A stretch of DNA of 64,000 nucleotides from a virus, in the IMG/VR virus record IMGVR_UViG_3300042308_000216, positions 1 through 64,000 of that record. One strand, given 5' to 3'. Numbering within the stretch: position 1 is the first letter of the stretch; every line of letters begins with the position of its first letter. The notes beneath the pieces are model-generated. The model saw only the letters and a program-made list of their open reading frames with translations. It was not told the origin of the DNA and ran no database searches. Below, one piece after another: positions 1-1,804 of this stretch. Both the position numbers and the translations under genes were made by a program.

Positions 1-31
1 ATAGCCTCACACCTCAACACATTGTATTAAT

Positions 32-244
32 TTACTGCTCTTTTTCCATATCTAGACCTGTAGATACAGTTAAGATTAGAATAATAATGGTATGTAACAC
101 CCATATAGGTGAACATTGAATGTTATAGAATGTTTCCATAAATACAACAGACAATGTAAAATTAACAATAGAACCACCTATCATTAATAGGAAGAACATC
201 CCTGTTATCATCAGGAATGTTCTTAAGCTTGGATTATTTTTCAT
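32..244 (-). CDS. small membrane protein (2 predicted TM helices), putative early gene
   Basis: 70-aa ORF with two hydrophobic stretches; lies 2 nt downstream of the 247-351 ORF on the minus strand. Confidence 0.6.
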   Translation of the reverse strand: MKNNPSLRTFLMITGMFFLLMIGGSIVNFTLSVVFMETFYNIQCSPIWVLHTIIILILTVSTGLDMEKEQ

Positions 245-246
245 AT

Positions 247-351
247 CTATTTAATTTTAGGATTAAAATCATTGTAAATTTGAAGAAAGCCCATACCTGT
301 AATCACACCTGCAACCCAGCAGAATATGAGTAAATAGTCATTGAAAGTCAT
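247..351 (-). CDS. 34-aa single-TM peptide (MTFNDYLLIFCWVAGVITGMGFLQIYNDFNPKIK), not in ORF track
   Basis: ATG at 351-349, TAG at 249-247, 105 nt; hydrophobic core; tightly coupled to the next ORF at 244. Confidence 0.55.
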   Translation of the reverse strand: MTFNDYLLIFCWVAGVITGMGFLQIYNDFNPKIK

Positions 352-371
352 GAGATTTAGAATTAGAAGGT

Positions 372-820
372 TAGACAAAGTTGAGGACTCGCAATCTTTG
401 GTAGATCACTTATAAGGTTCGTTTTTATCCCCCTTATCATTTTAGATAGATAAATTAACTGTATTCACACACTTTACCAAAGTATGTTAAAAGAAACTTG
501 CAGTTCCTACAGTTAATCAGCCGTTATACCTAAGTATATTGAACTTTAAATCAGTATTCCACTACTGAGCAAGTACCAACGGGATGGAATTTGTATCCGT
601 TGAGATAATAGTTTTAAACAAGCTTTTGGCTGTTAAACTACAACTAGTTCTCACACTAATTGTTAAAGTTCCTGATTTTTAAGTCTGCACTAATTCCATG
701 TTACACTTATCAGAGTGTTTGATATCATCCCATTGTCCTATCTATAGATAGTATGCACTGATATGCATTGGATGAAACATGGTAATAGCCCCACAGGATT
801 GTCAGAGTTTATCAACTCTA
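372..820 (-). ncRNA. putative large, highly structured non-coding RNA (~450 nt) with pseudoknots
   Basis: ORF-free, with more than 10 complementary helices (e.g. 454-463/508-517, 541-549/663-671, 696-702/776-782, 725-730/770-775, 577-582/597-602, 551-556/563-568), loop-loop complementarity, and a G-U pair that favours the minus strand. Confidence 0.65.
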
Positions 821-823
821 AAG

Positions 824-855
824 AAAAAATAAGCAGTTTATGACTTGCTTAGGTC
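824..855 (-). other. compact H-type pseudoknot / terminator-like element
   Basis: minus strand reads GAC-C-TAAGCA-A-GTC-ATAAAC-TGCTTA-TTTTTT: two interleaved stems followed by a U tract. Confidence 0.45.
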
Positions 856-1009
856 TTGGAAACTATAACTAATCAAAGTCATAGTCCTGAATGTCTCTGA
901 TGATAACACCATTAACAACAGTAACGCGTTCTCTATACATGGGAATATGTATTAGAAGGTTTATGTGCTATATTTTAACAAATGATGAGTAACAGCACGT
1001 AACTCAATA

Positions 1010-1044
1010 AAGTAAGAGAATGATAGCACAGATGCTATCACTCT
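1010..1044 (-). terminator. intrinsic terminator-like hairpin downstream of the 1062-1304 ORF
   Basis: TGATAGCA(1021-1028)-CAGA-TGCTATCA(1033-1040) extended by AGAG/CTCT; U-rich tail on the minus strand. Confidence 0.5.
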
Positions 1045-1061
1045 CTAACTCTCACTAAATG

Positions 1062-1304
1062 CTACTTAGCACCTAGCATTACCTGATAGAATGTTCCATT
1101 CTCATTAGTAGCTTCTACTAACTTATGAGAATCATCAGGAATGTTAAATGCAAAGCCAATCTCTAATGCAGTATTAGTACGTAACCATGCTTTAGTCCCG
1201 ATAACAAAATCAGGAGCACCATCAGGTAACACACTTACAGCATTAGAGAATACACCTGGATTAGTTGCAGATGGTTTGCTAGAAATAACGATGAACTTAG
1301 CCAT
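1062..1304 (-). CDS. hypothetical protein (~80 aa, MAKFIVISSK...); track start at 1442 probably too long
   Basis: ORF with phage-like composition; the upstream extension runs through a GC-rich inverted repeat. Confidence 0.6.
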   Translation of the reverse strand: MAKFIVISSKPSATNPGVFSNAVSVLPDGAPDFVIGTKAWLRTNTALEIGFAFNIPDDSHKLVEATNENGTFYQVMLGAK

Positions 1305-1368
1305 GACTTTAGGGGATGGTACATTAGTTATGAACTGAAAGGAACTATTCCCTACAGCACTTTGACAG

Positions 1369-1421
1369 GGGTACCATACCTGCCCAACCTTAGTGGGGGT
1401 AGTTTGCATAAGGTGGTACCC
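1369..1421. repeat. GC-rich inverted repeat at the divergence point of the two genome arms
   Basis: GGGTACCA 1369-1376 / TGGTACCC 1414-1421 with inner CCT/AGG and TGC/GCA pairs. Confidence 0.6.
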
Positions 1422-1443
1422 ATTCCCATACTCACAAAACATT

Positions 1444-1477
1444 TTTGTTTTTTATAAAAAATTTTTATCTACCTTTG
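1444..1477 (+). promoter_or_regulatory. Bacteroidota housekeeping-sigma promoter (-33 TTTG / -7 TAnnTTTG)
   Basis: TTTG 1444-1447 and TACCTTTG 1470-1477 (spacer 22 nt). Confidence 0.55.
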
Positions 1478-1757
1478 TACTGTAACCTAATTTTAATACA
1501 CCTCTTAAAGTTAGACCACCCATAAGTAAAAGTGGGTTAGAAGTTGGATCAAAGGTTTATGAATAATAGACTAAGTTTCTCCGATAGTTACAAAAATGAT
1601 TTTGATATAATTGTAGGACTACCACCAACGTGTAAGGGAAAGAGTAGGCTAGGGGCTAAAAACCAACTACAGGAAATTCAAAATTAACATTCAAACCTCA
1701 AGGGGAAAATTATATCTACTCAGCAACAGGTAGTTAACATATAATCTATCTTTTTAT

Positions 1758-1788
1758 TTTGGATATCCAAACTATGGTTTTACATTTG
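1758..1788 (+). promoter_or_regulatory. Bacteroidota sigma promoter with a palindromic operator-like site
   Basis: TTTG 1758-1761, 19-nt spacer, TACATTTG 1781-1788; perfect palindrome TTTGGATATCCAAA 1758-1771. Confidence 0.7.
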
Positions 1789-1804
1789 TAAAAAACTATA
1801 AGAT

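Follow-up and report, generated by a model that had tools for sequence, protein, structure and literature searches.

The question raised by this locus is whether a stretch of phage DNA that carries no evident gene specifies a large structured RNA, and what such an RNA might do for the phage. The window, which denotes the whole stretch of 64,000 nucleotides that was analysed, covers the initial 64 kb of a viral contig that is 95.9 kb long. By its gene sequences the genome that hosts the locus is that of a crAss-like phage: its large terminase shares 32–33% identity with the terminases that crAss-like phages of Bacteroides, Flavobacterium and Cellulophaga encode, and terminase and portal PHROGs were also matched. 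No DNA match was found among annotated phage records. A preliminary description of positions 372–820 had proposed a large and ornate RNA in an ORF-free stretch. This proposal was borne out; the segment corresponds to a large, conserved phage RNA, which lies on the minus strand. Coordinates joined by an arrow (→) are read along that strand, and a downward arrow (↓) marks a cut.

As had been claimed, the segment contains no ORF of at least 60 aa (code 11). Coding under an alternative genetic code was rejected, as there is no long frame when TAG is read as Q or TGA as W, and the stop-to-stop frames reach a maximum of 61–64 aa. A tRNA or tRNA-like element was also rejected; ARAGORN finds none in the window, and GCGAGUCC resembles a T-loop but gives no T-arm. 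The folding of 372–820 on the minus strand was better than that of shuffled sequence (z = −4.16, with 0 of 100 shuffles as good), while the plus strand gave z = −2.15. Most of the helices listed in the preliminary description were recovered in the minus-strand minimum free energy (MFE) fold (ViennaRNA, 681→379). One of these, the hairpin 467–473/481–487, was recovered as 487→479/475→467, and its U-G pairs are possible on the minus strand only, as had been remarked.

One third of the RNA belongs to a known class. Positions 825→670 (670..825) are a full-length self-cleaving ribozyme of the hatchet class (Rfam RF02678), which scores 82.6 bits where the gathering score is 51 (E 1.4e-15, model positions 1–133 of 133), and this was the sole Rfam match above threshold in the whole window. 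ROOL, GOLLD, group I/II introns, HDV-like, twister, pistol and hammerhead RNAs gave no match at gathering score in the window, and no other family was found at E ≤ 10 within 200–1100. The earlier statement that the RNA belongs to no known family therefore fails for 825→670 and stands for the remaining 290 nt (669→381), which match no Rfam family; the novelty lost to the Rfam hit is that of 825→670 only. The suggested kinship with ROOL or GOLLD had to be given up, as neither Rfam model matched. Nor is a new ribozyme needed, since the ribozyme is a known hatchet and the conserved 3′ tail resembles a second substrate site for it.

Hatchets are defined by an Mg-dependent self-cleavage that leaves 2′,3′-cyclic phosphate and 5′-OH ends. 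The hatchet cut lies 5′ of P1, with the C at −1 carrying the nucleophile, and a non-conserved P0 hairpin is found just upstream in ∼90% of hatchets (Li et al., 2015; PMC4604424). With cleavage at its 5′ edge, a hatchet remains on the downstream (3′) product (PMC8782182). The RNA in the window has the sequence features of this class (RF02678; PMC4604424), namely P0, C at −1, P1, both cores and the variable insert, with a predicted cut at the 5′ edge. P1 is formed by 821→816 with 807→802, and both conserved cores, CAA-CCUGUGGGGC and GUGCAGAC..AAAAAUCAGG, can be recognised. The core nucleotides flanking P1 and P2 (CAA..CCUGUGGGGC; GUGCAGAC..AAAAUCAGG) match the consensus, and the same cores occur in all family members. 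The Rfam alignment predicts the first cleavage site at C823↓U822 (822..823), with U824 at −2. P0 is a hairpin of 8 bp with one bulge (U851-A830; 830..851), followed by six U (U829-U824) and separated from the site by a 7-nt spacer; homologs have a hairpin at this position without sequence conservation. The P0 hairpin and its U-run have the form of an intrinsic terminator, so they might throttle read-through into the ribozyme. The segment 824–855, which had separately been read as an H-type pseudoknot with a U-tract, is accounted for by P0 (851→830) and the six U.

Several of the helices drawn earlier can now be placed on the ribozyme. The helix 804–809/814–819 corresponds to P1 but was offset by 2 nt, and those between 696 and 782 fall within the variable insert. 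A closing helix at 374–378/799–803 is not conserved and was rejected because the pairing would use the conserved CAA linker of the ribozyme. In a further observation, one homolog (L144:3600–4128, minus strand) carries an extra hairpin in the P1 loop and a 16-nt hairpin between H7 and H8, and still scores 60.6 bits. The hatchet class as described ends at ∼133 consensus positions, whereas here the ribozyme always precedes a conserved pseudoknotted domain of 250–330 nt that ends in an apparent second copy of the cut site. The hatchet literature that was found covers chemistry and crystal structure only and gives no biological role. In the papers that were accessible, no report was found of a hatchet linked to a downstream conserved domain, to a second site or to phage-made circles.

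The 290 nt behind the ribozyme (669→381) represent, as judged by sequence comparison, a new RNA family, with ∼27 phage and metagenome loci in which it follows a hatchet in conserved form. When viral contigs were scanned for the hatchet core, they returned 113 loci, which had only the core in common with the window. The near-invariant 3′ end, an 18-mer (AAGAUUGCGAGUCCUCAA), recovered 7 viral and 16 metagenome stretches. All genuine full-length stretches with the 18-mer have a hatchet 240–320 nt upstream on the same strand, with 60–84 bits where scanned. L199, L203/L205, L213 and L218 were discarded as chance matches to the 18-mer, as they have neither a hatchet nor the extended motif; L199, L203 and L213 are more GC-rich than the family. 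A covariance model of the 3′ half of the family (R1) scored all members at 87–161 bits, with L007 at 37 bits, and gave weak but correctly placed matches behind hatchets in a further subgroup with the tail GCAAGUCCUCAA. This tail and a CUCAC variant bring nine more hatchet loci.

Behind the ribozyme, the structural elements follow in the order H1, H2, an optional H3, H4, H5, a three-way junction (outer helix, H6a and H6b), H7, H8 and the tail. Folding energy for the non-hatchet part alone was modest (z = −2.0 on the minus strand, −1.15 on the plus strand); therefore, it is comparative evidence, not energy, that establishes the fold. H1 (641..662) pairs 662→655 with 648→641 in the ViennaRNA fold, and the homologs have the stems CAAC/GUUG, CCAG/CUGG and CAAUAG/CUAUUG at its place. 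H2 (609..640), supported by ViennaRNA and homolog comparison, consists of 640→635 with 614→609 and an inner stem, and reproduces the helix described earlier as 609–614/635–640. H4 (576..603; 603→597 with 582→576) closes a 14-nt loop and H5 (551..568; 568→563 with 556→551) closes the loop GUGGAA; both are fully paired in every member, in ∼8 and ∼6 sequence versions, respectively. The long-range helix 671→663/549→541 (3′ strand at 541..549), which encloses H1 to H5, was found with its 9 bp in the MFE fold as previously drawn, but L195 retains it (ACUUUAA/UUAAGGU), L212 and L144 have a weak form and other subgroups have none, so that it is lineage-specific. The MFE pair 522→519/389→386 was rejected, as it is not conserved in other subgroups.

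The three-way junction (453..518) is built from the outer helix 518→508 with 463→453, H6a (507→493) and H6b (487→467), the last being followed by a conserved GAAU. The outer helix has 11 bp and contains the 10-bp helix 454–463/508–517 of the preliminary description. H7 (412..437) pairs AUAAGG (437→432) with CCUUAU (417→412) around an A-rich loop. H8 (393..407) pairs GAUCU (407→403) with AGAUU (397→393), with other stem versions in L007 (AGAGU/ACUCU) and in subgroup D (CCUGUG/CACAGG), and occupies the P0-equivalent place for the predicted second site. All 6 pairs of H7 are altered on both sides (ACAGGG/CCUUGU, CUUGGC/GCCAAG). In the three helices of the junction this holds for 4, 5 and 4 pairs, and in the five helices of the 3′ half for 22 of 27 pairs, in an alignment that was fitted to the structure of the model. 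In this model-fitted alignment, 90.8% of cells are paired, vs 76.6% after shuffling (0 of 500 shuffles reached the observed value) and 29–47% when the partner was slid.

Three long-range tertiary pairings, identified from covarying sequence, hold the fold together. PK1 joins the H4 loop (UUCCA, 589→585) to the H5 loop (UGGAA, 561→557). It is the kissing loop first drawn as 590→585 with 561→556, and the same two loops in the homologs carry one of 3 versions (UUCCA:UGGAA, GUCACA:UGUGAC or CUCAC:GUGAG). PK2, which is new here, joins CUUGC in the H4-H5 linker (569..573; 573→569) to GCAAG in the H6a loop (501→497) and occurs in 6 versions (CUUGC:GCAAG, AAUUGC:GCAAUU, GCUUAA:UUAAGC, GCUCA:UGAGC, GCUGA:UCAGC and AGUUC:GAACU). 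PK3 joins UGGUA in the H6b loop (479→475) to (U)ACCA in the H8 loop (403→399); the pseudoknot suggested earlier thus proves to be a loop-loop contact, and its 3–4 versions include UGGUA:UACCA, UUGAC:GUCAA and CUAGG:CCUAG. As plain MAFFT misaligned the subgroups at H4-H5, the tertiary pairs were checked by position and not counted by a pair tool. In this check of 20 members, PK1 to PK3 were found in the same order in all, except for L007, which lacks PK1, and each member carried only its own version. The two tertiary contacts of the preliminary description thus covary among homologs.

The RNA ends in an invariant tail, GCGAGUC↓CUCAA (381..392), with a predicted second hatchet site at C386↓C385. 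The tail proved similar in sequence to a hatchet cut site and appeared to covary with P1. It reads GAGUC↓C-UCAA, vs UUC↓U-UUAGAG at the native site and aUC↓u-ucAc in the Rfam consensus, with UC at −2/−1. In most members the P1 3′ strand is CCUUGA, and its final four bases pair with the tail UCAA, giving 4 bp; the P1 strand of the window is CUCUGA, and three pair, U384-C383-A382 with A802-G803-U804. The tail also tracks P1 where both differ, with UUAA facing UUAA in L007 and UCAC facing GUGA in two members, L016 and L090. At 91 distinct GUC-N-UYAN sites located behind hatchets, the tail base that went with a G in P1 was C in 55 cases and U in 18, and the one that went with an A in P1 was U in 18 and C in 0; these sites include chance matches and related sequences, so the association is not a clean test.

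The spacing around the two sites is alike. A distance of 7 nt separates H8 from the proposed second site downstream of it and likewise P0 from the native one; the conserved stretch sets in ∼5 nt ahead of site 1 and breaks off ∼5 nt beyond site 2. The 9-mer AGUCCUCAA has 25 copies in 2 Mb of hatchet loci, of which 22 are found no more than 500 nt behind a hatchet, a zone that makes up 3.3% of the sequence. This 9-mer ends two unrelated classes of unit, at ∼79 nt behind the hatchet in a short class and at 286–316 nt in the class of the window. A crude count of TC-N-(P1 complement) sites in this AT-rich DNA gave 33/89 downstream vs 30/89 antisense. The alternative P1, for which the window offers 3 bp and most members 4 bp, would be short vs the closed native P1 hairpin of 6 bp, which it would need to displace.

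Two other hatchet unit classes were observed alongside this family. The short class (∼200 nt; L009, L027, L046, L049, L053, L073, L082, L083, L085, L095 and L100) ends in a hairpin and AUAGUC↓CUCAAC, ∼79–81 nt after the hatchet 3′ core; the terminal motif is that of the window's family and the intervening RNA is unrelated. Another class (L014, L029, L054, L056, L068, L097, L098, L102, L106 and L113) has CACUC↓A-UUAAGG 211–216 nt after the hatchet, in which all 6 nt of the P1 5′ strand of this class are repeated.

As the cut site recurs at the end of the fold, the phage probably excises, and perhaps circularises, a 437-base RNA. The hatchet would fold and cut its own 5′ edge at C823↓U822, leaving a 5′-OH on an RNA that starts with the ribozyme. 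The following 290 nt would fold into H1, H2, H4, H5, the three-way junction, H7 and H8, locked by the three long-range pairings, and would present the tail site GAGUC↓CUCAA to the hatchet core, with UCA(A) replacing the P1 5′ strand. A second cut at C386↓C385 would then free a 437-nt RNA with 5′-OH and 2′,3′-cyclic phosphate ends. Because ends of this kind can be joined by RtcB-type ligases or through the reverse ribozyme reaction, a circle may result, the junction of which would read ...GCGAGUC-UUUAGAGUUGA... As DNA in viral contigs, this junction pattern gave only chance matches in coding sequence. We infer both in vivo cleavages, the role of the fold and the circularisation, and we give an even chance to the proposal that two hatchet cuts release this RNA (U822..C386, GC 0.34), possibly ligated into a circle. 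The predicted units across the family are 364–474 nt long with a GC of 0.32–0.37. The role of the knotted domain may be to position H8 and the distal site at the ribozyme, to serve as cargo, or both.

The genomic setting of the RNA was then considered. The locus sits in an arm that diverges from the GroES-like/terminase/portal arm. It is flanked by a 126-aa ORF on the same, minus strand (1442→1062; 1062..1442), which has no PHROG match, and by two small hydrophobic minus-strand ORFs. The first of these (34 aa from ATG at 351; 351→247, 247..351) begins 30 nt past the tail and is conserved only in the close relative L212; the second, membrane-like one (70 aa; 244→32, 32..244) has relatives in L212 and L208. 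The 126-aa ORF and the RNA are probably co-transcribed, the transcript arriving from upstream. A 14-bp hairpin (1015..1046, minus strand) follows the 126-aa ORF ∼190 nt ahead of the ribozyme and is terminator-like, with a weak U-run. The Bacteroidota-type motif TAnnTTTG occurs at 1686, ∼240 nt upstream of the 126-aa ORF, as the sole minus-strand copy in 1–2000; in the whole window it was counted 59 times on the plus strand vs 28 on the minus strand.

The distribution of the element is patchy and mosaic. The closest terminase relatives (96–99% identical) lack both window positions 29–1420 and the hatchet, and four remoter terminase relatives (84%, 79%, 49% and 49%) have the entire element. The ORF, the ribozyme unit and the small ORFs (29–1420) appear on these sequence comparisons to be a swapped cassette. 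L115–L136 (terminase 83–99%) share window positions 1415–1800 and not the region to the left of it, and L119 matches again at window positions 1–29 only. No close relatives were found through the 126-aa neighbour protein. A dedicated protein partner was rejected, as the ORFs downstream of the members fall into many unrelated groups, and no neighbouring protein is conserved across the members. Given this and the absence from the closest relatives, an accessory role of the RNA is more likely than a core one, as the patchy distribution also suggests. Genes for tmRNA (Rfam RF00023) were seen beside tRNA genes in related phage contigs (L119:660–1041, 72 bits; L195:8424–8820, 63 bits).

The explanation that competes best with excision by two cuts, although it seems unlikely to us, is a linear, stable, trans-acting phage RNA. 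The hatchet would make its 5′ end and a terminator or host nuclease its 3′ end, the invariant single-stranded tail and the conserved loops would contact RNA or protein of host or phage, and the fold would serve as a decoy, a sponge or a scaffold. A hairpin and U-run stand right after the tail in many members (L217, L139, L206, L209 and L144) and could alone set the 3′ end; the window and subgroup D, however, have no terminator there, and a scan of window positions 1–1800 found no intrinsic terminator after 381. The complex fold with invariant unpaired nucleotides, the lack of a conserved neighbouring protein and the mosaic distribution would all suit a trans-acting RNA, and the tail could instead bind a protein or another RNA. 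Such a role leaves unexplained why the tail copies the hatchet cut site and why AGUCCUCAA also ends an unrelated, much shorter hatchet unit. Across 185,579 reference genomes the tail 18-mer had one match, by chance, so the tail is not a copy of host sequence (such as a CRISPR repeat mimic or an attachment site); a complementary host site would also have matched, and none was seen.

It is improbable that the element is a cis-acting leader of the downstream genes, in which ribozyme cleavage would detach the upstream message and the fold would act by antitermination at the hairpin behind it (as lambda nut or HK022 put do behind the first early gene), by insulation or by 5′-end protection. The window, L139, L144, L156 and L159 share one order of promoter region, first small ORF, RNA element, hairpin and a series of small ORFs on the same strand, and nearly every member has a same-strand ORF within 20–185 nt downstream, whatever the ORF family. 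These downstream genes are, however, unrelated between members and their distance varies widely. Moreover, known put or nut sites need far less than 290 nt with three tertiary contacts. Least credible of all, and hardly to be expected, is that the 3′ domain acts as a further, new ribozyme, which would cleave itself within the invariant tail and so trim its 3′ end independently of the hatchet: its pseudoknots, multistem junction and invariant nucleotides beside the putative cut are the mark of biochemically sophisticated RNAs (criteria in PMC5737381), but short hatchet units without the 290-nt domain end in the same tail motif, the tail tracks the hatchet P1, and there is no match to a known ribozyme family.

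The preferred reading, excision by two hatchet cuts, can be set beside known systems. Like ROOL and GOLLD, the RNA would be a large, ornate, phage-borne and protein-independent fold; in contrast to them, it is smaller, is attached to a ribozyme and has predicted processing sites at defined positions, and their Rfam models do not match it. In Tornado designs and retrozymes, self-cleavage at both ends gives 5′-OH and 2′,3′-cyclic phosphate ends, which are joined by an RtcB-type ligase. Those systems use two ribozymes, whereas here one hatchet would cut two sites.

Circular RNAs with hatchets have been described by Lee et al. (preprint 10.1101/2022.07.19.500677) in 34 clusters of 357–567 nt; the most diverse cluster is 440 nt long, the median GC of the hatchet circles is 35% and most of them come from freshwater metatranscriptomes. 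No mention of a DNA source for them was found there. These 'viroid-like' circles carry a single hatchet in one polarity, and their length and GC fit the units predicted here, the comparison being one of size and GC alone. They differ in having been recovered as circles of RNA and considered as potential replicators, whereas the window unit is encoded once in a DNA phage genome. The broader proposal is that Bacteroidota DNA phages encode single-copy hatchet units that are self-excised by two cuts of one ribozyme and closed into ∼440-nt circles, with the 290-nt triple-pseudoknot domain as distal-site scaffold, circle cargo or both. We advance it tentatively, as somewhat short of an even chance.

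The significance of the locus depends on how much of this reading holds. If the structure alone holds, it provides a new complex RNA family that is suited to structural work. As a concrete unit, the locus offers a defined predicted 5′ cut, a conserved 290-nt fold, three covariation-backed contacts and a 3′ end resembling the cut site. If cleavage at both sites and ligation are true, one small ribozyme would process two sites, and the phage would produce, early in its leftward arm, a circular RNA that resists nucleases. If ∼440-nt phage circles are real, the orphan hatchet class would gain a natural job, and the aquatic 'viroid-like' hatchet circles would be reassigned to phage transcripts and not RNA replicators, with the lake circles gaining a DNA source.
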